A DNA stretch of 64,000 bases from a bacterium (GTDB lineage: Bacteria > Patescibacteriota > Minisyncoccia > CAIUEV01), in contig JAJXZR010000029.1 of NCBI GenBank assembly GCA_021779915.1, positions 12,495-76,494 of the forward strand, read 5' to 3'. Below, in pieces: positions 11,994 through 63,419 of this stretch. The translations under genes were made by a program, and so were the position numbers. Position 1 is the first letter of the stretch, and each line of letters begins with the position of its first letter. A model generated the notes under the pieces. It worked only from the letters and a program-made list of their open reading frames with translations. It did no database searches and was not told where the DNA came from.

Positions 11994-13775
11994 ATGTACA
12001 TCACCAACAAACAATTAAAAAACTTTTTGCTCGAATCGGAGATTATATCGCCTGATACTTTGGATCAGGTGGAAAAAGAACTTCCAACCCAAGATGATAA
12101 ATTGGGAGAATTGTTGGTTCAAAAGGGCTTGCTTGAAGAAGAACAGCTTCGTAAAACCTATGCCTATATTTCTGGAATTCCTTTTGTAAACTTGGAGAAT
12201 CAATTTGTTGCCAAGGAAATTCTCAATATTATTCCCGAACCAATTGCGCGCAAGCACAATATAGTCGCTTTTGAAAGGGACGGAAGCAAAATCAAAGTGG
12301 CGATGCTTGATCCTCGAGATCTTCAAACGATTGATTTTATCAGAAAAAAAACTCAAAGCAAGATTCTGCCGTGCCTTACTTCAGAAAAATCAATTTCCCA
12401 TATTCTAACCTTGTACCAAAAGTCTTTGAAAGCTGAATTTGGCGATATTATTGAAGAAAGCGTTAAAATTTCTTCCGTTATGAATGAAGCAAGAGGGGTC
12501 GGTACAACTTCTGATGGGGGAGAGAAAGAAGAAGAAACACTAAAGAAAACTGCTGAAGAATTACCCGTTATAAAGATTATAGACGTACTCCTCAAGCATG
12601 CCATTTTGCAACAGGCCAGCGATATCCACATTGAACCCATCGAAAAAGAGGTTATTGTAAGATACAGGATTGATGGCATTTTGCACGACGTAATGTTTCT
12701 TCCTAGGGAGATATTGTCCGCAGTTATCGCCAGAATAAAAGTACTTTCCGATTTGAAGCTCGATGAGCACAGACTCCCTCAAGACGGAAGATTTAAACTG
12801 GAGACTCAAGATTATAAATTTTCTTTCCGAGTTTCGATTCTTCCTATCATCGATGGAGAAAAGATTGTTATTCGTCTTCTCAATGAAACGAGTAAAGGAT
12901 TAACTTTAGAGCAATTGGGCTTTCGAGGGAAAGCACTCGAGGTGATCCAAAAGAACATTCATCGTCCGCACGGAATGCTCTTGGTTACCGGACCGACCGG
13001 ATCAGGCAAAACCACCACCCTCTATACCATGATGGATATTTTGAATACCAACCAAGTGAATATTAGCACTGTAGAAGACCCAATTGAATACCGAATGCAA
13101 AGAATCAATCAAACTCAGGTTAATTCAAAAGTGGGTCTTACGTTTGCAGTTGGGCTTAGGTCTCTTTTACGCCAAGACCCGGACATCATTATGGTTGGAG
13201 AAATCAGAGACGAAGAGACGATGCATATTGCGATTAATGCTGCTATGACTGGGCATTTAGTGCTTTCAACCTTGCATACCAATTCTGCCGCTGCTACAAT
13301 GCCACGGCTCATGGACATGGGAGCTGAGCCGTTTCTTTTAGCCTCCACTTTGAACGTTGCCATTGCCCAAAGATTGGTGCGAAAAATCTGTCCCAATTGC
13401 CAGGAGGATTATTTAATGGGACAAAACGATGTTGAACTTTTGAAGAAAAAAGTTGATGCGGATAAGATTTTTGAAATTTTAAAGCAAGAGAAGATTATTC
13501 CTGAAACAGCTAGGGGTTTTGAGGAAGTGGCTTTTGCCAGAGGCAAAGGTTGCGTAAGATGCAACAACACCGGATACAAGGGAAGACTGGGCATTTATGA
13601 GGTGATCGAGGTTGATGACGATCTTCGAGCACTTATTTCCGAAAGAAAAGATTCTGATACAATCAACGCCAAAGCAGTGGAAAATGGCACGATCACTATG
13701 CTTCAAGATGGATTTATCAAAGCAATCCAAAAAGTTACTACAATCGAGGAAATTTTAAGAGTTACACAAGAATAA
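11994..13775 (+). CDS. pilB: type IV pilus assembly / type II secretion ATPase (GspE/PilB family)
   Basis: T2SSE_N domain, Walker A GPTGSGKTTTLY, Walker B DPDIIMVGEIRD, His box GHLVLSTLHTN, tetracysteine CPNC...CVRC. Confidence 0.85.
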   Translation: MYITNKQLKNFLLESEIISPDTLDQVEKELPTQDDKLGELLVQKGLLEEEQLRKTYAYISGIPFVNLENQFVAKEILNIIPEPIARKHNIVAFERDGSKIKVAMLDPRDLQTIDFIRKKTQSKILPCLTSEKSISHILTLYQKSLKAEFGDIIEESVKISSVMNEARGVGTTSDGGEKEEETLKKTAEELPVIKIIDVLLKHAILQQASDIHIEPIEKEVIVRYRIDGILHDVMFLPREILSAVIARIKVLSDLKLDEHRLPQDGRFKLETQDYKFSFRVSILPIIDGEKIVIRLLNETSKGLTLEQLGFRGKALEVIQKNIHRPHGMLLVTGPTGSGKTTTLYTMMDILNTNQVNISTVEDPIEYRMQRINQTQVNSKVGLTFAVGLRSLLRQDPDIIMVGEIRDEETMHIAINAAMTGHLVLSTLHTNSAAATMPRLMDMGAEPFLLASTLNVAIAQRLVRKICPNCQEDYLMGQNDVELLKKKVDADKIFEILKQEKIIPETARGFEEVAFARGKGCVRCNNTGYKGRLGIYEVIEVDDDLRALISERKDSDTINAKAVENGTITMLQDGFIKAIQKVTTIEEILRVTQE

Positions 13776-13784
13776 AAAATGTTT

Positions 13785-14004
13785 GTGTCATTCCCAGCGT
13801 GTCGACCGAGAATCCAGGAGGGTAGAAAATTATTCTAATTGACCTAATTATACTAATTATTCTAAACAAAATCCAAAAACCAATTTCTAAAATTTATTTT
13901 TATTGTTTGGTACTTGGTGCTTTTTTAGTATAATTAGTATAATTAGGTCAATTAGAATAATTAATGAGATTAAACTGAATCTCGTATTAAGCCCGAGATT
14001 ACAC
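13785..14004. repeat. MITE-like palindromic element, hairpin-TIR family, long subtype (H1)
   Basis: left terminus GTGTCATTCCCAGCGTGTCGACCGAGAATCCAGG, degenerate right terminus, internal ctaattat/ttggtgctttttt inverted module shared with the copies at 36851, 55222 and 63194. Confidence 0.65.
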
Positions 14005-18038: not shown

Positions 18039-18152
18039 AATGACGAATGACGAATATCGAATATCGAATGACGAACCAATAATAGAAGATATTTTTTGCC
18101 ATTTTATATTTGGATTTGATTCGTCATTCGTCATTTGGAATTTGTCATTTTA
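18039..18152. repeat. TGACGAA-heptad palindromic element (T1) between convergent stop codons
   Basis: atgacgaatgacgaatatcgaatatcgaatgacgaa ... ttcgtcattcgtcatttggaatttgtcatt. Confidence 0.7.
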
Positions 18153-18154
18153 TC

Positions 18155-18826
18155 CTAGTTTCTCCTAATCACACACCCTTCTTCTCTTTCCTTCTTAAAT
18201 TTATTAACAATCTTAAAGCGAATTTGGTTTTCTCCAGGTTTTAGGAATACGGGAGAAGAAAAGACTCCATTTTTGTCAACCAAGATATCTTCTCCGTTAA
18301 TAAAAATGTGTCCTTCTGGCTGGATGGTACCTCGAAGCTCTATTGTTTCTTCATTTGTGTTGAAGGGACAAGTAGCCGGACTGCTCAAGGCAAAAGAGGG
18401 CTGGCTGTAGAGAGGTAAAATTATTTTTATTAAAAAATATATCAACGTCATACTTATCATTGTTCCCATTAGCAAAATAAAATTTCTATAGTTTACATAA
18501 CGAAAAATTTTTGAATAGGGGCTTATCGGATGAAAAGAAAAAGAATCTTTTTCGACTCTTTTCTTTCTTTTTTCATAAAGCAAGATGGCTTTTTTGGGAT
18601 CAATTTGAACAAAATTAGCATAGCTTCCAACAATACCTCTGGAGTAAATATTGGGAGGAAGTGAGAAAAAATCATTTTGTTCCAGAGCGATTATGTATTC
18701 TTTACTTATAGTAAGAGACTTAGCGACTGTTTCGATCGTTAACCCCAATGATTCCCTTCCATTTTTCAAATAATCCCCCAAATTTTCTTCGTTAATTTTT
18801 CTAACCTTAAAGGCTGAGTCTCTCAT
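18155..18826 (-). CDS. RodZ-like helix-turn-helix membrane protein (XRE-type HTH, single TM, C-terminal DUF4115-like domain)
   Basis: N-terminal HTH, central TM helix, C-terminal beta-rich domain. Confidence 0.5.
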   Translation of the reverse strand: MRDSAFKVRKINEENLGDYLKNGRESLGLTIETVAKSLTISKEYIIALEQNDFFSLPPNIYSRGIVGSYANFVQIDPKKAILLYEKRKKRVEKDSFSFHPISPYSKIFRYVNYRNFILLMGTMISMTLIYFLIKIILPLYSQPSFALSSPATCPFNTNEETIELRGTIQPEGHIFINGEDILVDKNGVFSSPVFLKPGENQIRFKIVNKFKKEREEGCVIRRN

Positions 18827-20750: not shown

Positions 20751-20754
20751 GTGT

Positions 20755-21005
20755 GTGTCATTCTCGGCGTGTCGACCGGGAATCCAGGAGGATAGTATTG
20801 GTCTAACAAAATTCCAAATTCCAAGAAACAAATTACCCACCTACCGGTAGGCAGGCAAACAAGATACGATTTTCCAAATTAAAAATTAAAAACATTATTT
20901 TTTTATTTTAAATTTGTGATTTTGAATTTGTTTGGAACTTGTTTCTTGCTTCTTGGAATTTTATGGTCTTACTTACATAGATCCTCGCTTTCGCAAGGAT
21001 GACAC
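20755..21005. repeat. MITE-like palindromic element, hairpin-TIR family with internal arms (H3), inverted relative to H2
   Basis: GTGTCATTCTCGGCGTGTCGACCGGGAATCCAGG ... GGATCCTCGCTTTCGCAAGGATGACAC; internal ttacccacctaccggtaggcaggcaaacaag. Confidence 0.75.
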
Positions 21006-22711: not shown

Positions 22712-23263
22712 ATGAGTTTTGATAAGGGAAAACTTTTCATTATTACCGGAGCAGACGGATCCGGAAAAACGAAGGTGATTGAAGATCTGGAAAAGATTAA
22801 GTCTTTTTATTTGGTAAATTACATTACCACTGCTTCTCAAAGCGAAAAAGGAGTAGTTCCGGTCAGTTGGGATAATTTTCAATCATTCGCAGAGAACGAC
22901 GGTTTTGTTCTTTCTTTCAAAAAAAGAAATGCGATGACAGGAGTCACTCATGAGGAGATTAAAAAGGCCGAAGCAAGCGGTCAACCGATCGTTTGGGAGA
23001 TTGATATCCAGTGGATTGAAGATATTAGAAACGAACATCCGGAAGCGACTACAATTCTCGTAAATGGACTGGACGCCGAAGGATTTTATCAGCACTATGA
23101 AAGCAAAGGGAGCGCCGTACCCACTCTTACGGCAATCAAAGCTCAAAGAGCTGAGCATCTGCACGAATGGGGCAGAGGACAAGTAGATTACATCGTAGAA
23201 AATAAATTTGGAGAAAGCGCCAAAGCAGCAGAAGAAGTGAAAAAGATAATGGAAGGAGGATAA
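22712..23263 (+). CDS. guanylate kinase-like P-loop nucleotide kinase
   Basis: GADGSGKT P-loop and a C-terminal VDYIVENKF...EEVKKIM segment like Gmk. Confidence 0.45.
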   Translation: MSFDKGKLFIITGADGSGKTKVIEDLEKIKSFYLVNYITTASQSEKGVVPVSWDNFQSFAENDGFVLSFKKRNAMTGVTHEEIKKAEASGQPIVWEIDIQWIEDIRNEHPEATTILVNGLDAEGFYQHYESKGSAVPTLTAIKAQRAEHLHEWGRGQVDYIVENKFGESAKAAEEVKKIMEGG

Positions 23264-23392
23264 AAAATGACGAATGACAAATGTCGAATGACGAATTAAT
23301 GGCAAAATCCAAATATCAAAAAATTTTGTCATTTGGTATTTGAAATTTATCGTTTTATTAGAAATTAGGTGAATTAGGTTAATTAGAAATTT
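23264..23392. repeat. TGACGAA-heptad element (T2) with an ATTAGAAATTAGGTGAATTAG right terminus
   Basis: aatgacgaatgacaaatgtcgaatgacgaatt ... ttttgtcatttgg ... ttagaaattaggtgaattaggttaattagaa. Confidence 0.6.
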
Positions 23393-23396
23393 TATA

Positions 23397-24254
23397 ATGT
23401 CTTCTCTCTCCTCCGATCTCTCAGACTCTCTCTCAAAAAACAATATCTTCCCCAATAAAAAATTAGGTCAGTGTTTTCTTGTTTCAAAAAAAGCTTTGGA
23501 GCAAATTATAAAAGCTTCCAAAATAAAAAAAGGTGAAAAAATACTGGAAATTGGTCCGGGAACAGGAATTTTGACTAGAGAATTATTAAATCGGGGAGCC
23601 AAGGTTGTTGCAGTTGAAAAAGACAAGCGCCTTTTTGAAATAATTAGGGATAACTTTCAAAAAGAAATTAAGGAGGCAAGGCTAACCCTTATAAAAGGAG
23701 ACTTTCTGAATTTAAATTTCCCTCGATTTTTAAAAGATTTGAATTTTAAAGAAAAAGAATACAAAGTTGTTTCCAATTTGCCCTACCAAATCACTTCTCC
23801 TGTTCTCAAAGTTTTATTAGAAGAAAATTTTCTTCCTAAAGACATCATTATTACCATTCAAAAAGAGGTTGCGATGAGAATTTGTGCTGGTAAAGGAGAG
23901 CTTGGTTCTTTGAGCGTAATGGTTCAATCCTGCTCAAAAGGATGTAACATAGTGAACAAATTTCCTCCATCATATTTTAAACCTCAGCCAGAGGTTGATT
24001 CTGCCTTGATCAAAATTGAAGGGCTGGACTATCCTAAGGGAATTGATATTAATTTTCTGAGAAATCTTCTCCGAATTGGGTTTTCTTCTAAAAGAAAAAA
24101 ATTAGCAAAGAATTTTAAAAATGTTTTTCCTAAAGAACAAATCGATATTATTTGGGAAGAGTTAAATATACCGGAGAATGTTAGAGCGGAGGATTTAGTA
24201 GTAGAGAAATGGGGGGAAATCGCAAGGAAGATCAAAACTTGGAGTACAAATTAA
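23397..24254 (+). CDS. rsmA: 16S rRNA (adenine1518-N6/adenine1519-N6)-dimethyltransferase
   Basis: GQ.FL motif, SAM-binding LEIGPGTG, 285 aa. Confidence 0.85.
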   Translation: MSSLSSDLSDSLSKNNIFPNKKLGQCFLVSKKALEQIIKASKIKKGEKILEIGPGTGILTRELLNRGAKVVAVEKDKRLFEIIRDNFQKEIKEARLTLIKGDFLNLNFPRFLKDLNFKEKEYKVVSNLPYQITSPVLKVLLEENFLPKDIIITIQKEVAMRICAGKGELGSLSVMVQSCSKGCNIVNKFPPSYFKPQPEVDSALIKIEGLDYPKGIDINFLRNLLRIGFSSKRKKLAKNFKNVFPKEQIDIIWEELNIPENVRAEDLVVEKWGEIARKIKTWSTN

Positions 24255-24623: not shown

Positions 24624-27600
24624 ATGTCTCTTTCGAAAAAAGTTAGTGGCGGAAAACAGCAAGATTTTGAGGAAATTGCCCTTCGTGATACAACCAGAAG
24701 ATTAAGCAGGGCTTCAGAAGAGGAACAGGCTGCCATTCGAGCGGCTGGGTCCGGTCTTCCTTACCTTGATCTCAATATTTTTCCCGTAGGGGCGGAAACT
24801 TTAAGCATTCTTCCCGAAGAAGTGGCTCGACTAGGAGAAATTACCGTTATCCAGAAAGCGGGACGAGAAATTAAGGTAGGAGTTTTTGACCCCAACAACA
24901 AAACCACTCAAGAAGTTTTGGAAAAGTTGGAAAAAGACGAAGGATATCGTATTAAACTTTACATCGTTTCCAGAACCAGTCTTAAAAGAACTTGGGATAG
25001 ATATAAGCACATTAATCTAGCTTCTTCCCTGGAAGATATGATGCTGACACTTTCTGGCAAGGATTTAGAAAAATTTGAGAACGACATTAAAGAGCTTGTT
25101 GACCTAAAGAAAAGAATCCGGGAACTTCCAACCACCGAAGTATTAAACGTCATTATCGCCGGTGCAATCAAGATGGATGCTAGCGATATCCACACCGAAC
25201 CTCAAAAAGATGATGTTCGCATCCGTTATCGTCTGGATGGAGTTTTGCATGACATTGTCCATATTCCTTACAATTACTACCCTTACGTCCTTTCTCGAGT
25301 GAAAATGCTTTCTGGACTCAAACTCAATATCAAAGACCGTTCACAAGACGGACGTTTTTCCATCAAAACTAACAAGTACGAGATTGACGTTCGTATTTCA
25401 ATCCTTCCGGGAAATTATGGAGAAAACATAGTAATGAGGCTTCTCAACCAAAACGAAACTGGATTCACTTTGGAAGATTTAGGTCTTCGCGGAAGAGCCG
25501 CTGAACAACTGGCTATTCAAATGGCCAAACCTAACGGAATGATTCTTAATACCGGACCTACCGGTTCTGGAAAAACCACCACTCTTTATGCTTGTATCCG
25601 CAAATTGAATTCTCCCGACACAAAAATAATCACTATTGAAGACCCGATAGAATATCGTTTGGCAGGTGTATCCCAAACTCAAGTTCACAAGGAAAGAGGA
25701 TATGATTTTGCTAATGGTCTTCGAGCGATTGTTAGACAAGACCCTGATGTAATTTTGGTTGGGGAAATCAGAGACGAAGAAACGGGAGATATTGCAGTCC
25801 ACGCCTCTTTAACGGGACATCTGGTGCTTTCCACCCTTCACACTAACAGCGCCGCCGGAGCTATTCCTCGTTTGATTGATTTGGGAATCCGGCCTTCTCT
25901 TATCACTCCTTCGATTAATTGTATTATTGCTCAAAGGCTAGTTCGAAAACTTTGTCCTTTTTGCCGGGAAGAATATGTTCCTGCTCAGGAGACTTTAGAA
26001 AGCATGAGTCGCTTCTTGTCGATTATTTCCCCTAAAGCGCGAGTAGAAGTTCCGAAAAATATCACCACTCTTTATCGGGCAACGGGCTGTCCAAAATGCC
26101 ACGGATTGGGATATAAAGGCAGAATCGGAATATTTGAAATTTTTGAAGTCACTCCTTCTATTGAGAAACTAGTTCTAGAAATGGCTCCTGCTTCCGATCT
26201 TTTGGCTGCTTCTATGGAAGAAGGGATGGTAACAATGCTTCAAGACGGAATCCTTAAGGCCGCCGAAGGAATGACTTCGATGGAAGAGGTTGAAAGAGTG
26301 ACGGGATCCGGCCAATACCTGCAAGAAATTTACGAAAAAATTATGGTGCAACTTCTTTCACTCCAGCTAAAAATCACCGCAAAGCAAGGCGAAGAAGTGG
26401 TTGGTTGCGGATATGAAGCAAAAAATATCGCTGACTACATTCAAAAAGCATCAAATAAAGATATTCTTAATTATATTGTGGCTGGAGGGCTTTCTTTCGA
26501 TGCGGGAGATATCCACATGGAACCGCAAGGAGATAGAATAAAAATCCGCTATCGGATTGACGGTATTTTGGAAGATATTACTGATATAAAGGCAAGCGAC
26601 TATTTGCCGGTTCTTTCTCAAATAAAACTACTGGCCGGACTCAAAACCGATTCCCACGCTGCCGTTCAAGACAGTCGTTTTGGGATCAGTCTCGAAACAC
26701 CGATCCGCGACATCCCTAATAAACAAATAGACGTGAGAGTTTCCATTATTACTGGAGGGTATGGAGAAACAGTGGTGATGAGACTTTTGCATAAATCAGC
26801 TCAAGCCCTGGAAGTAGAAAAAATCGGTTTCCGACCACAACTACTGGACAAACTATTACGCGAAATTGAAAAACCCAACGGAATGATTCTTAACACAGGA
26901 CCAACCGGTTCTGGAAAAACTACCACTTTGTACTCTCTTCTTAATCGATTGAATAAACCCGAAGTTAAAATCATCACTGTGGAAGACCCAATTGAGTATC
27001 GCTTGGCGGGAATATTGCAAACTCAGGTTTCAGTTGATGAAGGATACAATTTTGCCGACGCTCTGCGAGCGCTCCTTCGCCAAAATCCGGATATTATGAT
27101 GATTGGGGAAATTAGAGATGAAGAAACGGGAAAAATTTCTATCCAAGCCTCTTTGACAGGGCACTTGGTACTTTCCACTTTGCATACCAACAATGCCGTA
27201 GCTTCTATCCAACGTATGATCAATATGAACATCGACCCCACTGACATCGCCACCGCTACCAACGCCATGATGGCTCAAAGATTGGTCAGAAAGCTTTGTC
27301 CTGTTTGCAAAAAGAAAGTTCCTATTACTCCCGATAACAAAAAAAGATTGGAAGAAATTATTGCCGGAATTCACCCCTCGACTGGAATTTCAATTCCAAG
27401 CAACACAGTTGACTTTCTATATGAACCAGTTGGCTGTTCAGAGTGTAAAAACATAGGTTTCAAGGGAAGATTTCCCGTCGCAGAACTAATGCTAATGACT
27501 CCGACTCTCGAAGAAATGGTAGCCCACTTTGCCATCACTTCTGAAATTGAAAAACAAGCCATCCAAGAAGGAATGCTCACTATGACCCAAGACGCAGCCC

Positions 27601-27659: not shown

Positions 27660-27702
27660 AATAATGTTGCAATTAACAGAACTAAGTAAAATGTTAAACC
27701 CC

Positions 27703-27844
27703 GTGTCATCCCGGGCTTGACCCGGGATCCAGTTAGACTAACAGAATGTTATTTTAACGTGTATTTGTAAAAAACTAAACAAAAGAACGTTTTGTTAGAC
27801 TAACACTATTTTCCTGGATCCCGGCTCAGAGGCCGGGATGACAC
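27703..27844. repeat. MITE-like element, hairpin-TIR family, short subtype (H6)
   Basis: GTGTCATCCCGGGCTTGACCCGGGATCCAG ... CTGGATCCCGGCTCAGAGGCCGGGATGACAC; internal ttagactaaca modules. Confidence 0.75.
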
Positions 27845-30796: not shown

Positions 30797-30914
30797 ATAA
30801 ATGACGAAGTTCGAATGACGAATGACGAATTGTGGTGTTCACTATCCTCACAATCAATCGTCGCCTTCGGTGACACCTTAATTTGTCATTCGTCATTCGA
30901 ACTTCGTCATTTAT
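30797..30914. repeat. TGACGAA-heptad palindromic element (T3) between convergent stop codons
   Basis: aatgacgaagttcgaatgacgaatgacgaatt ... aatttgtcattcgtcattcgaacttcgtcattt; nearly perfect inverted halves. Confidence 0.75.
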
Positions 30915-31621
30915 TGAAACAGCCCTTCATTAAATATCAGATTTATAAGGGTGGCTCTGGCTGGGGCGACTCCCCAGACTTCATACGAACCACCTAATTG
31001 ATTCAAATTAACGTCTCCTCCAATAATATTAGCAAAAACTGCTGCTTCTATTTTGGGAGGAGTTCCCCAAGTGCAGTTTCCTTCTAGCATTCCCTTAACT
31101 GTGCCTTGGCAGTCTCCACCCTGCTGTTTGCCCAGTCCTTCAAAAAGAAAGGGGATTCCAAATTGCAGATTTTGTTTGGCAATTCCTCCAGCATTGTCAA
31201 GAGCCGCTACGGCTAGTCCTCCCGCAGGAGCGCTCGCAAGCGTCGCTGGAGTACCAAAACTTCCATAGGTGAGAAGTTCGTTACGATACTGATCGACCAA
31301 AGTACTCCAAGCATTTTGGTTGACATCTTCAATTTGTTTGAGAAGTGTTTGAACATCACTAACAAAATGACCTCCCATGGATTGCATGCCGGCATGCCCC
31401 TGAAAAACAAACTGCAGTTTTTCCGGTACTTGGTTCTGAGATACCCGAGACTGAGGGTCTTGATAAGAGTCGGGAGCACTGGCTTGTCCCGCTCCAACAT
31501 TAATATTTCCACTAGGACCAAAAAGCCCGCCACCAGGAGAAAGATTGGCAGCACTGGCTACATTAAAAATGGTGATGGGAAACAAAATTGTAAGAGCTGA
31601 AATAAGAAATGTTTTTTTCAT
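30911..31621 (-). CDS. secreted hypothetical protein (signal peptide, Gly-rich)
   Basis: N-terminal signal peptide MKKTFLISALTILFPITIFNVASA. Confidence 0.45.
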   Translation of the reverse strand: MKKTFLISALTILFPITIFNVASAANLSPGGGLFGPSGNINVGAGQASAPDSYQDPQSRVSQNQVPEKLQFVFQGHAGMQSMGGHFVSDVQTLLKQIEDVNQNAWSTLVDQYRNELLTYGSFGTPATLASAPAGGLAVAALDNAGGIAKQNLQFGIPFLFEGLGKQQGGDCQGTVKGMLEGNCTWGTPPKIEAAVFANIIGGDVNLNQLGGSYEVWGVAPARATLINLIFNEGLFQ

Positions 31622-36792: not shown

Positions 36793-36850
36793 AGGGTTTT
36801 GAGTTTAAAATAGCAGAATTTACAAATTTCAATTTCTTATTATATTTTGT

Positions 36851-37095
36851 GTGTCATCCCGGGCTTGACCCGGGATCCAAGAGAATAGAAAATTGCTCTA
36901 ATTAACCTAATTATACCCACCGCCTAAGGCGGGATCCCGCTTTGCGGTGATAATTGACCTAAAAAAGCACCAAACAATAAAAAATAAATCTTGAAAATTG
37001 GTTCTTGGCATTTTATTTAGAACAATTAGATCAATTAGGGTAATTAGAATAATTGGCGAGTCTAACTAGATCCCGGGTCAAGCCCGGGATGACAC
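36851..37095. repeat. MITE-like element, hairpin-TIR family, long subtype (H8), inverted relative to H1
   Basis: GTGTCATCCCGGGCTTGACCCGGGATCCAAG ... CTAGATCCCGGGTCAAGCCCGGGATGACAC; internal aattagggtaattagaataatt module. Confidence 0.75.
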
Positions 37096-44729: not shown

Positions 44730-44759
44730 TGGGAGGATTAAAAGTAAGATTCTACCCAC

Positions 44760-44899
44760 GTGTCATCCCGGGCTTGACCCGGGATCCAGGAGAGTGGTAT
44801 TAGTCTAATAAAATGTTAGTTTGTTCAATCTCTTACAATGCACATTAAAATAACATTCTGTTAGTCTAACTGGATCCCGGGTCAAGCCCGGGATGACAC
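44760..44899. repeat. MITE-like element, hairpin-TIR family, short subtype (H9)
   Basis: GTGTCATCCCGGGCTTGACCCGGGATCCAGG ... CTGGATCCCGGGTCAAGCCCGGGATGACAC; nearly perfect. Confidence 0.8.
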
Positions 44900-47108: not shown

Positions 47109-47157
47109 TGATTTGAATTTCTAATTCACCTAATTTTTAATTTACCTAATAAAATAA

Positions 47158-47390
47158 CCAAATTCCAAGAAACAAATTACAAACAAGAAACAATTTTCCA
47201 AATTAAAACATCCCACGTGTCATCCCCGGCGTGTTGACCGGGGATCTAGGAAAATTATATTTTACTAGTCTAATATAATTCTCCTGGATCCTCGCTTTCA
47301 CAAGGATGAAACGCTAAAAGGGTATTGTTTTGTATTTCGAATTTGTTTGTAATTTGTTTCTTGCTTCTTGGAATTTTTATTAGAACTTAT
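47158..47390. repeat. composite element (H11): hairpin-TIR core (47217-47322) flanked on the outside by ccaagaaacaa inverted arms
   Basis: arm ...aattccaagaaacaaattacaaacaag... | GTGTCATCCCCGGCGTGTTGACCGGGGATCTAGG ... CTGGATCCTCGCTTTCACAAGGATGAAAC | ...cttgcttcttggaatt arm. Confidence 0.7.
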
Positions 47391-47417
47391 GTAAATTAGA
47401 AATTAAACTAAAACCTC

Positions 47418-49673
47418 ATGAAGCTCGTCATCGTTGAATCTCCTACTAAAGCCCGAACTATTGGTCGTTTCCTAGACAAAGAATATCATGTTCTTTCTTC
47501 TTACGGTCATATTCGCGATCTTCCCACAGGAAAATTGGGAGTAGACGTCGAAAAAAATTTTTCTCCAGACTATGTTATTCCTCCAAAAGCGAAAAAGAAT
47601 CTTTCCCTTCTTAAAACAGAAAGTAAAAAAGCGACAAAAATCATTCTCGCTACTGACGAAGACCGGGAAGGAGAGGCGATTGCCTACCATTTAAAGCATG
47701 TTCTCGGAGGTATCAACAAAAAAGTTCCTTTTGAAAGAATTACATTTCATGAAATAACTCCTCTTGCTATCAAAGAAGCCTTGAAACATCCCCGAGAAAT
47801 CGATGTTCGGCTTTTCGAGGCTCAACAAACCAGAAGGATTTTGGATCGTCTAGTTGGTTATGAACTTTCTCCTTTTCTCTGGAAGAAAATCCGCAAAGGC
47901 CTTTCTGCTGGGAGAGTTCAGTCAGTCGCGGTCAGATTAATTGTTGAAAGAGAAAGAGAAAGAGAAAAATTCAAATCGGAAGAATTTTGGAAAATAAAAA
48001 TTCTTTGGAAAAAACAAGGCGAAAAAGAGCAAAAAGAAACTTTGGAAATCATAAAAGAAAGTGAATTAAATAAGCTTCTAAAAATTAAGGAAGAAAAGGA
48101 AAAAATTAACGGTTCAATCGCCACCCTTGTTGAAAAAAATGGAAAAAAGCTAAACAAGCTTTCCATAAAAGAAGAAAAAGAAAGTCAAAAGATACTGGAT
48201 ACCCTTTGTTCTTCAAAAATGGAAGTCACAGGTATAGAAAAAAAGAGAGTTTTTCGACAACCATCTCCGCCATTTCGAACCAGTACATTACAACAAGAAG
48301 CTGGAAGAAGGCTGGGCTTTTCCGCTAAAAGAACTATGATGACTGCCCAACAGCTTTATGAAGGAATCAGCGTTGACAGAAAACAAGTTGGTCTTATTAC
48401 TTATATGAGAACAGATTCGCTAACTATTTCTGCTTCTGCTCTTAATACTATAAAAGAGGTTATTAATAAGAATTTTGGTCCAAACTATTCATTACAATCC
48501 CCTCGTTATTTTAAAAACAAAGCCAAAGGAGCTCAAGAAGCCCATGAAGCGATCAGACCTTCTTTTCCAGAAAAAACTCCTGATGAATTGAAAGATTTTT
48601 TAAGTTCCGACCAGTATAAATTGTACCGTTTAATTTGGGAAAAAACGATTGGAAGCCAAATGGCGCCGGCAGAGTTGAATACTGTTAAAATAAAATTTAG
48701 AATTTCCGAGTATGGTTTTTTGTCAGAAGGAAGCCAGATTGTTTTTGATGGATTCATGAAAGTCCTTGGGAAGGGTATTTTAAAAGAAGAGTTGCTTCCG
48801 GAAGTTTCAAAAGGAGAAAAAGTAGACAAGAGGAAGTTATTTGCTGAACAGAATTTTACCAAACCGCCCGCCCGCTACACCGAAGCGAGCCTTATCAAAG
48901 CACTAGAAGAAAATGGTATTGGCCGACCTTCCACCTATGCTCCAACTATCAGTACTATTCAAGACCGAGGCTATGTTTCCAAGGACGACAGCCAATCCTT
49001 GTTTCCTAACGAAATCGGTTGTATCGTCAACGACTCCCTAGTAGAACATTTTCCCAATATTGTTGAAATCAAGTTCACTGCAAGTGTTGAAGAAGATTTA
49101 GATAAAATCGCTAGTGGCAAAGAGAAATGGGTACCAGTTGTTAGTAATTTTTATAAGCCCTTCAAGAAAAATCTGCTTATAAAAGACAAGGAGGTTTCTA
49201 AATTTCAAAAACTGATTGACAAGAAGTGTCCGGAATGCGGAAAGCAACTAGTGGAAAAATTTGGTCGATTTGGAAAATTTTATGCTTGCTCCGGTTATCC
49301 CGAGTGTAAACATTCAGAAGGAACCGACGAAGAAAAACAACTAGAGAAAGAGGTAAGCGCCGAAAAATGTCCGGAATGCGGACACCCCCTCACTGTGAAA
49401 AGAAGCAAATGGGGAATGTTCAAAGGGTGTAGCAACTACCCTAATTGCAAGTTCATCAAAAAGTTTGAAAAAACTATCGGTATCAAATGCCCCGAATGTA
49501 AAACGGGGGATCTAGTGGAAAAACGGGGAAAAAGAGGACCCTTCTACGCCTGCAACCAATATCCGAAATGCAAATACATCGCCAAGGGAAGACCAGGGAA
49601 AAACAAGTGTGAGAAATGCGGGCAAATTATGATGAGAACGAAAGAAGGAGAACACTGTTTGAATTGTGGATAA
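47418..49673 (+). CDS. topA: DNA topoisomerase I with C-terminal tandem zinc ribbons
   Basis: TOPRIM N-terminus (LVIVESPTKA), active-site Tyr region, five C-terminal CxxC...CxxC ribbons. Confidence 0.9.
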   Translation: MKLVIVESPTKARTIGRFLDKEYHVLSSYGHIRDLPTGKLGVDVEKNFSPDYVIPPKAKKNLSLLKTESKKATKIILATDEDREGEAIAYHLKHVLGGINKKVPFERITFHEITPLAIKEALKHPREIDVRLFEAQQTRRILDRLVGYELSPFLWKKIRKGLSAGRVQSVAVRLIVEREREREKFKSEEFWKIKILWKKQGEKEQKETLEIIKESELNKLLKIKEEKEKINGSIATLVEKNGKKLNKLSIKEEKESQKILDTLCSSKMEVTGIEKKRVFRQPSPPFRTSTLQQEAGRRLGFSAKRTMMTAQQLYEGISVDRKQVGLITYMRTDSLTISASALNTIKEVINKNFGPNYSLQSPRYFKNKAKGAQEAHEAIRPSFPEKTPDELKDFLSSDQYKLYRLIWEKTIGSQMAPAELNTVKIKFRISEYGFLSEGSQIVFDGFMKVLGKGILKEELLPEVSKGEKVDKRKLFAEQNFTKPPARYTEASLIKALEENGIGRPSTYAPTISTIQDRGYVSKDDSQSLFPNEIGCIVNDSLVEHFPNIVEIKFTASVEEDLDKIASGKEKWVPVVSNFYKPFKKNLLIKDKEVSKFQKLIDKKCPECGKQLVEKFGRFGKFYACSGYPECKHSEGTDEEKQLEKEVSAEKCPECGHPLTVKRSKWGMFKGCSNYPNCKFIKKFEKTIGIKCPECKTGDLVEKRGKRGPFYACNQYPKCKYIAKGRPGKNKCEKCGQIMMRTKEGEHCLNCG

Positions 49674-49702
49674 GGAATATAATTTTCAATTTGACTTATT
49701 TT

Positions 49703-49826
49703 TCTCCCCTTCAGATGAAGGGGAGTACCCCGTAGGGGGAGGGGTTTGATGCCGAAGGCCGAATTTTGATCGCTTCGCGTTCAAACCCTCCGCCCTTACG
49801 GGCACCTCCCTTCATCTGAAGGGAGG
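49703..49826. repeat. 124-bp GC-rich nested palindrome after the topA stop (G1)
   Basis: tctccccttcagatgaaggggag-taccccgtagggggaggggtttga ... tcaaaccctccgcccttacgggca-cctcccttcatctgaagggagg. Confidence 0.7.
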
Positions 49827-49872
49827 AAAAAGTCACCTTTTAGGTGAATTAGAAATTTTAATTATCTTTCCT

Positions 49873-51030
49873 ATGAAAATCGCCATCTTCTCCGACACCT
49901 TTCCCCCTGAAATCAATGGGGTGGCTAATTTTGTTAAATTTTCTGCCCAGAGTTTGGCTAAAAAAGGACATGAAGTCCAAGTTTTTACCGTATCAAAATT
50001 CAGTGAAAAAAAACTGAATAAAAATTATCCCAAAAATCTTTTCGTAAACACTCTTCCTTCTTTGCCAGCACTTGTTTATCCCGACATCCGCTTCACCGTG
50101 CCAGCTGTATTAACCCTTTCAAAACTAAAAAAATTCAATCCCGACATAATACACTCCCACACTCCTTTTGCTTTGGGATGGGAAGCCGTGATGGATGCAA
50201 AAATCTTAAAAAAACCACTGGTCGGAACCCATCACACTTTCTATGACCAATACCTAAAACATTTAAAAGTCGATTTTGAATCAACGCGAAAATTCACTTG
50301 GAAATATACAGTCAGTTTCTATAATTTTTGCAATCTGGTTACAACCCCCAGCCAATCCCTTGCCAAAGAAATGGCGAAAAACGGGCTTTTGAAACCAGCT
50401 TTTGTATTACCTAATTTTGTAGACACAAAACTTTTTTCTCCTCCAAGCTCCAAAGAAAAAGTCGAATTTAAAAAATTTTTCAAAGTTTCTGGGACAACGA
50501 TTGTCTATATGGGAAGACTTAGCTATGAAAAAAGCGTTGATCGAGCAATAAAGTCTTTTGCTCTTGCGCAAAAAGTAATACCTGATATTTCCTTGCTAAT
50601 TATAGGTGATGGACCAAAAAAAAATAGCCTTGAAGATTTAGTAAATCAACTAGAAATACAAAATAAGGTTGTCTTTACTGGTTTTCAAAGGGGAGAATCA
50701 TTAGTTAATGCTCTTAGAGCGGGAGACATTTATTTTACTGCCAGCGAAACCGAGACTTTCTGTATTTCAGCCTTGGAAGCCATGGCGGTCGGTCTCCCCG
50801 TAGTTGCAGTTGACAAGGGAGGACTGGGAGAAATAGTTCAAGATAAAAAGAACGGGCTTTTGGCTTCTGAGAACGGAATCAACCAAATGGCGCAAAATCT
50901 GTTAACTTTCCTCCGAAATCAAAAAATGCTTACCGAATATGGTGAAAGATCCCGGGAGTACTCTTTGGAATATTCCAAAGAAAAAGTGACTAAAAAACTG
51001 GAAGAGATCTATGAAAAAGCAATTTTGTGA
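49873..51030 (+). CDS. glycosyltransferase family 4
   Basis: GT-B fold; motif SETETFCISALEAMAVGLPVVA. Confidence 0.7.
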   Translation: MKIAIFSDTFPPEINGVANFVKFSAQSLAKKGHEVQVFTVSKFSEKKLNKNYPKNLFVNTLPSLPALVYPDIRFTVPAVLTLSKLKKFNPDIIHSHTPFALGWEAVMDAKILKKPLVGTHHTFYDQYLKHLKVDFESTRKFTWKYTVSFYNFCNLVTTPSQSLAKEMAKNGLLKPAFVLPNFVDTKLFSPPSSKEKVEFKKFFKVSGTTIVYMGRLSYEKSVDRAIKSFALAQKVIPDISLLIIGDGPKKNSLEDLVNQLEIQNKVVFTGFQRGESLVNALRAGDIYFTASETETFCISALEAMAVGLPVVAVDKGGLGEIVQDKKNGLLASENGINQMAQNLLTFLRNQKMLTEYGERSREYSLEYSKEKVTKKLEEIYEKAIL

Positions 51031-55156: not shown

Positions 55157-55221
55157 GAGAAAAAGTTTAAAGTTAAAAATTCTATACTAAAAAAATTATT
55201 ACACTTGAAATATTTAACCCC

Positions 55222-55433
55222 GTGTCCTCCCGGGCTTGACCCGGGATCCAGTTAAACTCACTAAATTATTCTAATTGCTCTAATTAGCCTAATTATTCTA
55301 AACAAAATACCAAGAACCAATTAAAAAATTTTTGTTTATTGGTACTTAGTGCTTTTTAGAATAATTAGTATAATTAGGTTAACTAGAGTAATTCTCTACC
55401 CGCCTGGATCCCGGGTCAAACCCGGGATGACAC
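55222..55433. repeat. MITE-like element, hairpin-TIR family, long subtype (H12)
   Basis: GTGTCCTCCCGGGCTTGACCCGGGATCCAG ... CTGGATCCCGGGTCAAACCCGGGATGACAC; internal ctaattagcctaattattctaaacaaaata module. Confidence 0.8.
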
Positions 55434-58081: not shown

Positions 58082-58148
58082 TTAAGTTTTTTGCAATAAT
58101 TAAATCTACCATCCTGTTAACATAAAATATTTTTAATTCATCTACTAA

Positions 58149-58266
58149 AATGACTAATGACTAATATCGAATGACGAATCAATGACAAAGTCCTAATATC
58201 AAAAAATTTTGTTATTTGGATTTCGGATTTGGTTTGTTATTTGTCATTCGGAATTCGTCATTTGAT
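58149..58266. repeat. TGACGAA/TGACTAA-heptad palindromic element (T4) after the galU stop
   Basis: aatgactaatgactaatatcgaatgacgaatcaatgacaaag ... ttgtcattcggaattcgtcatttg. Confidence 0.65.
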
Positions 58267-58336
58267 TAGTTAGATTAGGCTTTTTTGCAGTTTCTCTTGA
58301 ATAATCAGTTTAATTATTACTCTTCATCAACATCTA

Positions 58337-59812
58337 ATGTCTTCAAACCAAACCCTCAAACAACTTCTTGCGGATCGAAAGAAAAAACTCGATTTAATTA
58401 AAGAAGCGGGGGTTAATCCCTATCCGAGCAAAGCAAAACGTACTTGCACAAATGCTGAGGCTTTGAAAAATTTCAACAAATTAAAAAAAAGAAAGATTAC
58501 TTTGGTCGGGAGAATAATGGGAAAGAGAGGCCATGGAGGAATAAATTTTGCCGATCTGGAAGATGAAAGTGGTAAAATCCAAATTGCCCTCAGAAAAGAT
58601 GAGATCGGAGAGAAAAATTTCAATATCTTTTTGAATTTAATTGAAAGGGGAGATTTTATTGAAGTTGAAGGAACTCTTTTCCTAACCCGTGCCGGAGAAA
58701 AAACGTTAGGAGTTTCTCGATGGAAACTTCTTTCCAAAGCCTTAAAGCCTCTTCCGGAAAAATGGAAGGGATTACAAAGCGAAGAATTACGCTACCGAAA
58801 GCGCTATCTTGATCTTCTTACCAACCAAGAAACAAGAGAAAGATTTAGAAAAAGAAGCCATTTCATCGAACTTTTACGTAATTTTCTTCTTGGCAAAGGA
58901 TTTCTGGAAGTGGAAACTCCCATTTTACAACAAATGGCTGGGGGAGCGATTGCTAAGCCTTTTAAAACTAGACACAATGCTCTTGGACAGGATTATTTTT
59001 TACGCATTGCTCCCGAGTTATATCTCAAAAGATTGATCGTTGGCGGATTCGAGAAAGTTTTTGAATTTGCCAGAAATTTTCGCAACGAAGGAATCAGTAC
59101 CCAGCATAATCCCGATTTTACCATGCTAGAATTTTATCTTGCCTACAGTGACTACGAGAAACTGATGAGCTTGACCGAAGAGATGTTTAAAAAAATCATC
59201 CCCAAAATCAACGGATCTTTTGTCATAAATTTTCAAGGAAAAAAGTTTGATTTTAAACCTCCTTATAAAAAGGTATTGTTTAGTGATTTAGTAAAGAAAG
59301 AATTAAAGCTGGATATGGATAAGTTGAAAAGAAAAGATTTGTTAGAGATAATCAAGAAGAACTCAATTGAACTAAAAAATATCAGCTCGGAGTCAGATGC
59401 GAAACTCCTAGATGAAATATACAAAAAAATAATTCGTCCAAAACTTTCCGGTCCGTTATTTCTGATGGATTATCCCAAAGAAATGATTCCTCTTGCCAAA
59501 ACTAAAGAAGAAAATCCCAAACGAATTGCTACCTTTCAACTGATTGTTAATGGTTGGGAAATAATTAAAGCCTACAACGAGCTTAATGATCCTGGGGAAC
59601 AAGCCGATCGTTTTTTAGAGCAAGCTAAAGCAAAAGAAAAAGGCGACGAAGAAGCTCACGGTTTTGATGAAGATTACGTTGAGGCTCTTTCCTACGGCAT
59701 GCCCCCAACAGCTGGCTGGGGAATGGGGATAGACCGATTTTTGGCTATTTTATTGGATCAGAAGAATTTAAGGGACGTGATTTTGTTTCCCTTGAGGAGG
59801 AAGAAGGATTAA
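58337..59812 (+). CDS. lysS: lysine--tRNA ligase (class II)
   Basis: OB-fold anticodon-binding domain plus class II core (motif 2 FRNEG, motif 3 GMGIDR). Confidence 0.9.
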   Translation: MSSNQTLKQLLADRKKKLDLIKEAGVNPYPSKAKRTCTNAEALKNFNKLKKRKITLVGRIMGKRGHGGINFADLEDESGKIQIALRKDEIGEKNFNIFLNLIERGDFIEVEGTLFLTRAGEKTLGVSRWKLLSKALKPLPEKWKGLQSEELRYRKRYLDLLTNQETRERFRKRSHFIELLRNFLLGKGFLEVETPILQQMAGGAIAKPFKTRHNALGQDYFLRIAPELYLKRLIVGGFEKVFEFARNFRNEGISTQHNPDFTMLEFYLAYSDYEKLMSLTEEMFKKIIPKINGSFVINFQGKKFDFKPPYKKVLFSDLVKKELKLDMDKLKRKDLLEIIKKNSIELKNISSESDAKLLDEIYKKIIRPKLSGPLFLMDYPKEMIPLAKTKEENPKRIATFQLIVNGWEIIKAYNELNDPGEQADRFLEQAKAKEKGDEEAHGFDEDYVEALSYGMPPTAGWGMGIDRFLAILLDQKNLRDVILFPLRRKKD

Positions 59813-59817
59813 AGAAG

Positions 59818-59996
59818 TTCTAATTCACCTAATTCCTAATTCACCTAATAAAATGTCAAAGGTCAAATGACGAATGACGAATTAATTCCGAATATCAAAT
59901 GACAAAAAAAGTATTTTGAAATTTGGATTTTGTCATTGATTTGTCATTTGACATTAGTCATTTGTCATTTTATTAGAAATTAGGTGAATTAGAACT
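59818..59996. repeat. TGACGAA-heptad element with TTCTAATTCACCTAAT / ATTAGGTGAATTAGAA terminal inverted repeats (T5) after the lysS stop
   Basis: ttctaattcacctaattcctaattcacctaat-aaaatgtcaaaggtcaaatgacgaatgacgaatt ... ttgtcatttgacattagtcatttgtcatttt-attagaaattaggtgaattagaa. Confidence 0.75.
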
Positions 59997-60087
59997 TAGA
60001 AATTTATCCCCCCTCTCTTGCCTTTCCCAAAAAAACCTCTCTATAATGGTAAGTTAGGCGTTTAAAAATTATTTCTAAATATTTTTT

Positions 60088-63156: not shown

Positions 63157-63193
63157 AAAGAAAGACCTGTATATACACAATCTTAATTTTAAC

Positions 63194-63419
63194 GTGTCAT
63201 TCCCGGCGTGTCGACCGGAAATCCAGGTTAGACTCACTAATTATTCTAATTTCTCTAATTGACCTAATTATTCTAAACAAAATCCCCAAAAACCAATTTC
63301 CAAATTTTATTTTTTATTGTTTGGTATTTGGTGCTTTTTTAGGTTAATTAGTATAATTAGGTCAATTAGAGCAATTTTACGTTCTCCCAGATCCCCGGTC
63401 GACACGCCGAGGATGACAC
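63194..63419. repeat. MITE-like element, hairpin-TIR family, long subtype (H14)
   Basis: GTGTCATTCCCGGCGTGTCGACCGGAAATCCAGG ... CCAGATCCCCGGTCGACACGCCGAGGATGACAC; internal ctaattgacctaattattctaaacaaaatcc module as in H1 and H12. Confidence 0.8.

Follow-up and report, generated by a model that had tools for sequence, protein, structure and literature searches.

A nested palindrome downstream of topA in a Patescibacteria genome shares its structured units with an element that carries a DUF559 nuclease gene

REPINs (doublets of repetitive extragenic palindromic, or REP, sequences that form hairpins) and RAYTs (REP-associated tyrosine transposases) are among the described systems closest to the element considered here, a GC-rich nested palindrome of 133 nt located between topA and a glycosyltransferase (GT4) gene in a 64,000-nt stretch of a Patescibacteria genome (contig JAJXZR010000029.1, assembly GCA_021779915.1), henceforth the window. 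We find that this palindrome consists of one widespread and structurally constrained unit in two convergent copies, and that it is homologous to both ends of an element carrying a gene for a DUF559 nuclease; it is reasonably likely to be a non-autonomous derivative of a small selfish DUF559-associated element, similar in kind to REPINs or to MITEs (miniature inverted-repeat transposable elements). As in REPIN/RAYT systems, two inverted short palindromic units form a hairpin of about 100-130 nt, the doublets are dispersed and multi-copy, and the units also flank one small gene of the nuclease type, each unit having its own conserved hairpin and short motif. By contrast, the flanked gene here encodes a DUF559 nuclease of the PD-(D/E)XK type and not an HUH/Y1 transposase (PF01797), the units start with (T)TC and end with TTTGA instead of bearing a GTAG/CGTC tag, and each combines two hairpins with a mirror-image G-tract, the same first-hairpin (P1) sequence recurring across phyla. 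Neither the window nor unit-bearing loci totalling ~1.06 Mb gave a match at E <1 in a tblastn search with E. coli RayT.

Bacterial MITEs, such as the Correia elements of Neisseria and the ERIC/IRU elements of enterobacteria, resemble the palindrome in their length (~125-160 bp), long imperfect terminal inverted repeats, lack of coding capacity and location between co-oriented genes, and both look like internal-deletion derivatives of gene-carrying elements. They differ from it in that the parent here encodes no known transposase family, DUF559 being its only gene, and in that the arms here fold independently and also occur singly; no target-site duplication could be defined in the flanks compared. 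Recognition would depend on folded subterminal hairpins, as in IS200/IS605 elements and their PATE derivatives, for which gene-less derivatives likewise exist; recognition of IS608 proceeds partly via non-Watson-Crick contacts between distant short segments. Those elements, however, have a Y1 transposase, asymmetric ends and no terminal inverted repeats, whereas here DUF559 is the gene and a single unit, inverted, makes up both ends. Rickettsia palindromic elements (RPEs) are palindromic repeats of ~100-150 bp that can lie in frame in genes, a behaviour shared here by the family's copies in the metagenome-assembled genome (MAG) CAZRPR01 and not by the window copy; the host phylum is another one, the likeness noted is one of behaviour, and we know of no gene associated with RPEs.

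On the side of the enzyme, Vsr and the Vsr-like homing endonucleases of the EDxHD family share their nuclease fold family with DUF559, and one of the latter, I-Bth0305I, has been placed in the same clade as DUF559 (PMC3424549); the family therefore contains a selfish, mobile member. I-Bth0305I differs in living in a group I intron, without flanking structured inverted repeats, and its structure (3r3p) is a weak match (E 0.076), while Vsr is a housekeeping mismatch nickase. The unit, for its part, recalls the mirror repeats of H-DNA (triplex DNA): a homopurine/homopyrimidine tract is accompanied by a mirror-repeat third segment, and the order of pyrimidine arm, loop, purine arm, turn and purine tract fits a purine-motif foldback triplex. 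Known H-DNA tracts, in contrast, are long simple repeats and not parts of a dispersed structured unit, and the triplex proposed here is read from the sequence.

Two convergent copies of one structured unit

An inverted-repeat search returned, downstream of topA, one long inverted repeat with arms of 59 nt (49699-49757 and 49773-49831) that are 76% complementary and separated by a gap of 15 nt. Weak complementarity continues outwards (49692-49700 with 49827-49835, and 49670-49684 with 49860-49874). The predicted RNA fold is far more stable than expected by chance on both strands (-87.2 kcal/mol, z -8.2, on the plus strand; -88.9 kcal/mol, z -10.3, on the minus strand), as is the DNA fold (-44.7 kcal/mol, z -8.3), and in none of the three cases was a shuffled sequence as stable. 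The GC content of 49704-49826 is 0.593; the window as a whole has 0.374, and the remainder of the topA-GT4 spacer 0.20 and 0.27. Only ~0.08% of 124-nt intervals reach this value, and the sole higher peak is a tRNA region at ~8869. The palindrome lies 30 nt past the topA stop codon, its spacer lacks coding capacity (no open reading frame (ORF) of >=50 aa), and no second copy was found within the 64-kb window, which was the scope of this search. These results bear out most of a preliminary description made from the DNA letters, which had placed a nested palindrome here, after topA, with a GC content far above that of the surrounding intergenic DNA and with outer arms that are each a hairpin; both outer hairpins are in fact perfect (10+10). 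The inner arm pair that it had also reported is present, though imperfect.

The element resolves into two units, A on the plus strand and B on the minus strand, arranged tail to tail:

49699-49703, plus strand: run of five T at the outer edge of unit A, pairing with the run of five A at 49827-49831 (from sequence)
49704-49725, plus strand: P1 of unit A, with pyrimidine arm CTCCCCTTCA (49704-49713), central GA and purine arm TGAAGGGGAG (49716-49725); perfect 10-nt arms
49728-49738, plus strand: P2 of unit A, small hairpin CCCC-GTA-GGGG at the family's sequence-variable P2 position (DNA fold)
49739-49749, plus strand: G-tract GAGGGG of unit A, mirror of the P1 purine-arm end GGGGAG, then the conserved tail TTTGA (mirror covariation and strict motif scan)
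49750-49779, no strand: central spacer of 30 nt, with mini-hairpin TGCCGAAGGC (49750-49759), 11-nt centre CGAATTTTGAT and mini-hairpin CGCTTCGCG (49771-49779); site of the DUF559 gene in full-length relatives
49781-49791, minus strand: G-tract GGAGGG of unit B, mirror of the P1 purine-arm end GGGAGG, then the tail TTTGA (mirror covariation and strict motif scan)
49792-49803, minus strand: P2 of unit B, hairpin GCCC-GTAA-GGGC (DNA fold)
49805-49826, minus strand: P1 of unit B, CCTCCCTTCA-GA-TGAAGGGAGG (arms 49805-49814 and 49817-49826); perfect 10-nt arms
49827-49831, plus strand: run of five A closing the long hairpin (sequence and inverted-repeat search)
49832-49857, plus strand: small hairpin TCACC-TTTT-AGGTGA, overlapping the AGGTGAATTAGAAATT module (inverted-repeat search)

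Each arm of the palindrome is thus one copy of a unit of ~50-70 nt, laid out as (T)TC, P1 (CYYCCC TTCA GA TGAA GGGRRG), 1-2 nt, the variable hairpin P2, a G-tract and TTTGA, and a profile search for the unit matched A and B as the sole instances in the window. Scanning one genome per species of GTDB with a 20-nt degenerate P1 pattern, a set of representatives to which the window's own genome does not belong, yielded 103 loci; the window together with 50 of these loci contains 78 units with the complete layout of P1, P2, G-tract and TTTGA, and half-element matches across phyla reach 85-94% identity over ~50 nt. Hosts include Flavobacteriaceae (Xanthomarina, with up to 8 full or partial profile matches in 8 kb, Sinomicrobium, Nonlabens, Arenibacter and Maribacter), Bacteroidales (Paludibacter and Microbacter), one Cloacimonadales chromosome and MAGs of the candidate phyla radiation (CPR), and a Fraserbacteria MAG holds a shorter form without P2. 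The P1 of unit B is the family's commonest, identical in Flavobacteriaceae, Cloacimonadales and CPR units, and the P1 of unit A, which forms as a hairpin when that unit is folded by itself as DNA, recurs in Bacteroidales and CPR units. Some CPR copies end with TTCTGA in place of TTTGA. No plasmid or phage matched the element in blastn searches, and a 16-mer scan of viral contigs gave 24 hits, all of them single chance-like hairpins.

Several features point to selection on the structure of the unit. In DNA folds of the isolated units, P1 and P2 form and the G-tract and tail remain single-stranded. Compensatory changes are seen in P1 (TTC/GAA to TTT/AAA or CTC/GAG), and P2 comes in 58 distinct sequences, of which 49 fold with >=4 bp (mean z -2.65). 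Most copies have GA at the centre of P1; others (at loci L042, L039, L052, L119 and L127) have TC there, with the remainder of the unit unchanged. Such a flip-flop of the hairpin tip would be expected if hairpins or cruciforms are processed or if the palindrome recombines internally. It argues for a DNA palindrome and against a pseudoknot between the P1 loop (UCAGA) and the tail (UYUGA), which was considered and rejected because the loop dinucleotide flips while the tail stays constant. The G-tract, in turn, mirrors the 3' end of the P1 purine arm and is neither a complement nor a direct copy of it (GGGAGG/GGAGGG, GGGGAG/GAGGGG, GGGAAA/AAAGGG, GAGGGG/GGGGAG and GGGGAGG/GGAGGGG). The mirror is perfect (6/6) in 19 of the 28 informative classes, and in the comparison with direct identity it wins 21 to 1. 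When the end of the profile match served as anchor for the tail, 0 of 5000 permutations reached the observed value (625 of 10000 in a version with a poorer anchor), a result that is suggestive only, the sequences being related. This order of pyrimidine arm, loop, purine arm, turn and mirrored purine tract would have the geometry of a purine-motif foldback triplex.

The doublet of A and B is likewise not confined to the window. It was found at >=10 loci in the CPR MAG CAZRPR01 and also in CALFZX01, and among the matches listed from metagenomes there are ~10 further doublets, several of them in the sample that holds the window's closest relative at topA, and none of them carrying DUF559; the pattern of this metagenome scan was the junction of unit tail and mini-hairpin, and most of its >=120 hits are chance matches in GC-rich coding DNA. 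At six CAZRPR01 loci (L043, L046, L047, L068, L071 and L131) the doublet lies inside long ORFs, in frame and always in the same frame, and contributes the peptide FSSLQMKGG...EGSE...SPSSEGEKN to giant surface-type proteins; one ORF of >2394 codons holds three doublets in one N-terminal region (L043, 6045-6954). The copy in the window lies between genes, and the frame read in the CAZRPR01 proteins is interrupted there by a stop codon. In the flanks of 13 doublets or gene-carrying elements, the CPR copies all start with (A/T)TTTTC, and the ends of doublets and elements read A/TTTTC...GAAAA/T (boundary at the slash), itself palindromic.

A DUF559 gene in the place of the spacer

Clustering the ORFs that lie near units across genomes revealed one small recurrent family, DUF559 (PF04480, E 6e-30 and 7e-33), and no other candidate mobilising gene recurred there. 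On four CPR contigs (L083, L138, L139 and L140), a DUF559 gene of ~120 aa lies between convergent units, at the place of the window's 30-nt spacer. In L083, from CAZRPR01, the gene fills exactly the interval from a B unit to an A unit, and the three closest homologues found in a protein search (L138, L139 and L140) come from independent contigs with the same layout. The window element aligns to both ends of L140, with ~400 nt, the whole gene, missing; the aligned ends include the mini-hairpins by the tails, ACGCGAAGCG on one side and GCCTTCGGCATC on the other, which bracket the DUF559 ORF, and the sequence that follows the upstream unit of L138 is identical to TGATGCCGAAGGCCGAAT of the window. 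The full-length form is a stand-alone DUF559 nuclease gene (Vsr-like PD-(D/E)XK, ~120 aa) bracketed by two convergent structured units of ~50 nt, and in the window copy the gene is gone while the two units and the 30-nt spacer remain.

The association also holds when the gene is taken as the starting point. All seven DUF559 genes picked by protein similarity alone (L138, L139, L140, L141, L147, L270 from Nitrospinota and L271 from Zixibacteria) have units of pyrimidine arm, loop, purine arm, linker and mirrored purine tract on both sides, within ~150 nt, and the unit sequences around them are lineage-specific (for example CCCCTCC-TTACCAA-GGAGGGG-ACTAA-GGGGAGG-TTAA). A strict motif of six pyrimidines, a loop, six purines and, after up to 50 nt, the exact mirror of those six purines was hit 18 times in the 6 kb flanking ten DUF559 genes (3 per kb), compared with 3 hits in ~935 kb of controls, the former figure being partly biased because five of the ten genes had been found via the unit pattern and five via protein; its only two hits in the window are the two arms of the palindrome. 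Five Flavobacteriaceae loci also have DUF559 beside units.

The DUF559 nucleases look active, to judge by the invariance of D54, E65, D67 and H71 in 13 aligned proteins. Their nearest solved structures are the N. gonorrhoeae DUF559 protein 3hrl (2e-17) and, weakly, the homing endonuclease I-Bth0305I mentioned above. The nuclease's last codons are in several lineages supplied by the downstream unit, which overlaps the 3' end of the ORF (L147, 1878-1911; L139, 2805-2854; L271, 1595-1625). Around the DUF559 genes of Flavobacteriaceae (L093, L098 and L119), several different families of hairpin repeats, such as TTCAAACTCCCCTTTCTT...CCCCTCTTCGTTCCAAGAGGGGAGC, are densely arrayed in addition to the ~50-nt unit. 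A separate observation concerns E. coli K-12, where the DUF559 gene ycjD (L272, 11030-11840) ends in a C-rich/G-rich palindrome and is followed, ~40 nt further on, by a duplicated DUF559 3'-end fragment and then by a GC-rich nested palindrome, CCCCTCGCCCCTCTGGGGAGAGGGTTAGGGTGAGGGG. A literature search, with most subscription journals lying outside it, linked DUF559 neither to repeats nor to mobility, and gave no relevant paper on the P1 sequence, on a link between Vsr and MITEs or REPINs, or on CPR repeat elements; the DUF559-associated element provisionally appears to be undescribed.

The topA-GT4 junction and other repeats of the window

The palindrome lies between two genes on the plus strand:

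47418-49673, plus strand: topA, the upstream neighbour (Pfam Toprim, Topoisom_bac and Zn_ribbon_Top1)
49873-51030, plus strand: GT4 glycosyltransferase gene, the downstream neighbour (context)

By the relatives of its topA, the bacterium is Moranbacteria-like, within the Patescibacteria (CPR). In the closest relative (topA 79% identical; L004-L006), which shares the gene order dnaJ-topA-GT4-GT4 with the window, the topA-GT4 spacer measures 17 bp, and in the next (topA 67% identical; L007/L008) 8 bp, compared with 199 bp in the window. The longer spacer is therefore lineage-specific extra DNA, ~180 bp relative to the closest relatives, of which the palindrome makes up 133 bp, and the difference in presence at this orthologous site is seen between species, not between strains. 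An insertion would have split a formerly tight junction, and a read-through transcript would carry a hairpin of ~-87 kcal/mol that could attenuate or stabilise it, as a side effect and not as the element's reason.

The AGGTGAATTAGAAATT module beside the palindrome is a separate repeat of this genome, outside the DUF559-type element of other genomes, and was absent from the flanks of the doublets and gene-carrying elements compared. Within the window it has 8 matches at <=2 mismatches (0.13 expected), located at the edges of other intergenic repeats. The preliminary description had linked the palindrome to so-called TGACGAA elements through this module; the shared flanking 16-mer stands as the only link, the sequence of the palindrome having no relation to those elements.

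Other repeats of the window deserve mention in their own right. Large layered palindromes made of tandem modules with an 8-nt period fill many intergenic regions (47109-47417, 59810-60000, 23250-23400, 18040-18170, 30800-30915 and 58135-58275), with 8-mers of the xxTAATTAG type, including AGGTGAATTAGAAATT, outermost beside the genes and those of the TGACGAAT type nearer the centre, mirrored on the opposite side; the dnaJ-topA spacer measures 309 bp in the window and 18 bp in the relative L007. Short GC-rich hairpins form a second repeat family, GTGTCATCCCGGGCTTGACCCGGGATCCAG with its variants, which occurs at 27689-27747, 36837-36895, 44746-44804, 55208-55266, 47213-47257, 13781-13825, 20751-20795 and 63190-63234, and presumably resembles the repeats of the ATTCCC-N8-GGGAAT type of Neisseria and other bacteria. 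In other genomes, the P1 loop of the unit contains further small hairpin repeats (L107, 2290-2363; L093, 5078-5162; and the same site in L098); one repeat family may thus land in the hairpin loops of another, a possible explanation for the layered palindromes. Three coding stretches (12955-13319, 25519-25883 and 26863-27227) share a Walker-A-containing segment, GGACCNACCGGNTCNGGAAAAACCAC, and are probably from paralogous ATPase genes, unrelated to the palindrome.

Origin and spread of the palindrome

The suggestion in the preliminary description of a third MITE type was right in kind, in view of the near-empty orthologous site, the multi-copy doublet elsewhere and the alignment to gene-carrying ends, except that the parent's gene belongs to no known transposase family. 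If the palindrome is a derivative of this sort, the unit would fold back in single-stranded or extruded DNA, with G·G-C and A·A-T triads formed by the G-tract running antiparallel to the purine arm of P1; this fold would be recognised, and the DNA nicked nearby, by a DUF559 nuclease encoded at another locus, after which host replication and repair would carry copies of the doublet to new sites, much as is proposed for RAYT transposases and REPINs. By this analogy, the palindrome would be mobilised in trans by the nuclease. A bolder extension, which we regard as possible but rather doubtful, is that stand-alone DUF559 proteins are the nucleases of an unrecognised class of mobile or selfish elements spread across phyla, that the ends of these elements are foldback purine-motif triplex units recognised by the nuclease, and that the palindrome is their MITE- or REPIN-like offspring, able to land in frame inside genes.

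Several observations weigh against this derivation and the mechanism attached to it. The relatives compared at the topA-GT4 junction are diverged genomes, and the extra DNA also has AT-rich flanks and the 16-mer module, so that the boundaries of the insertion are approximate. An identical element is present in all 3 assemblies of the species, with no polymorphism of filled and empty sites within it, and the 64-kb window holds a single copy and no DUF559 gene. No direct repeat or target-site duplication could be defined in the flanks of the 13 doublets or gene-carrying elements. The arrangement of units at DUF559 varies: CPR and Zixibacteria have them convergent, L147 and some Flavobacteria in direct orientation, and L270 divergent. 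Outside CPR, units are mostly single, intergenic and co-oriented with the gene on their 5' side (32 of 40 loci), which would also fit a role at the RNA level or a replication-strand bias. The triplex, moreover, is drawn only from covariation, among sequences related to one another. DUF559 or Vsr-like nucleases are not known to mobilise DNA except by homing, and we know of no case in which a PD-(D/E)XK nuclease alone is capable of strand transfer.

Homing is also the basis of the main rival history, in which the doublet would be the primary repeat, spread otherwise, DUF559 would be a free-standing homing endonuclease gene that invaded its centre, and the window copy would be an uninvaded allele. 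We judge this unlikely, though it accommodates several facts: the Vsr/DUF559 clade includes a proven homing endonuclease, I-Bth0305I (PMC3424549; a weak structure match), the gene lies precisely in the spacer between two mini-hairpins, a layout compatible with insertion into its own recognition site, and both gene orientations occur (an A-type unit is upstream in L138 and a B-type unit in L083 and L140), as expected for a near-symmetric target. It leaves unexplained, however, how doublets arrived at unrelated sites, including ORFs, and it fits poorly with the units that flank DUF559, in direct or divergent orientation, in lineages where doublets were not seen (such as Flavobacteriaceae, Nitrospinota and L147); no alternative mobilising gene recurred near units. 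Less probable still, in our judgement, is a cis element that serves the host and for which an origin as mobile DNA would not matter: it would act on the topA transcript as a hairpin in the RNA, by termination, attenuation or stabilisation, or else as a site in the DNA, similar to REP and BIME elements, for nucleoid proteins or gyrase. This is so even though such secondary host roles are known for the REP and BIME elements of E. coli, the hairpin is very stable on either strand and close to the topA stop codon, and the co-orientation of single units in other phyla would agree with it. Both closest relatives lack the element at the topA-GT4 junction, the same element lies in frame inside CAZRPR01 ORFs, and the GA/TC flip of the P1 loop speaks against a sequence-specific RNA loop.

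Two of the explanations in the preliminary description fall under this heading and fare badly. A structured non-coding RNA is disfavoured by the absence of the element from the relatives' site, by the copies inside ORFs elsewhere and by searches of Rfam 15, which matched only tRNAs in the window and gave no match for the units in ten unit-rich loci; at an E-value cut-off of 10, only generic long-hairpin models of miRNA precursors matched the element, with <=45.6 bits against gathering scores of 68 to 135. A strong bidirectional terminator would call for a U-tract after the hairpin, which is found on neither strand: a run of five T precedes and a run of five A follows the hairpin on both strands, the reverse of the layout of an intrinsic terminator, a consensus scan called no plus-strand site after topA, and the only call near the palindrome is a 6-bp hairpin on the minus strand. 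As for an incidental, lineage-specific palindrome without relatives, which the preliminary description had reckoned with should the element prove single-copy and unconserved, inside the window the copy is formally single, and the relatives lack it at the orthologous site, but we give this reading next to no credence: it is refuted by the homologues of unit and doublet in many genomes, because of which the palindrome is not incidental, and by the alignment to the ends of the DUF559 element, and fold z-scores of -8 to -10 also speak against it.

Taken as a derivative of a DUF559-associated element, the window feature appears to be an ordinary gene-less palindromic selfish element, and what appears to be new in its family is the enzyme partner and the structure of the ends. 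The DUF559 domain (PF04480) is very common in bacteria and its structure has been solved (3hrl), but, to our knowledge, no function is known for its stand-alone form; if the derivation is correct, this form would gain a concrete hypothesis, that of a partnership between nuclease and repeat like that of RAYTs and REPINs on a different enzyme fold. The mirror covariation suggests a natural intramolecular triplex recognised by a protein, which would be unusual if true. The streamlined genomes of CPR bacteria would, finally, tolerate palindromic selfish DNA and may be shaped by it, as it can split operon junctions such as topA-GT4 and can add peptides to surface proteins.

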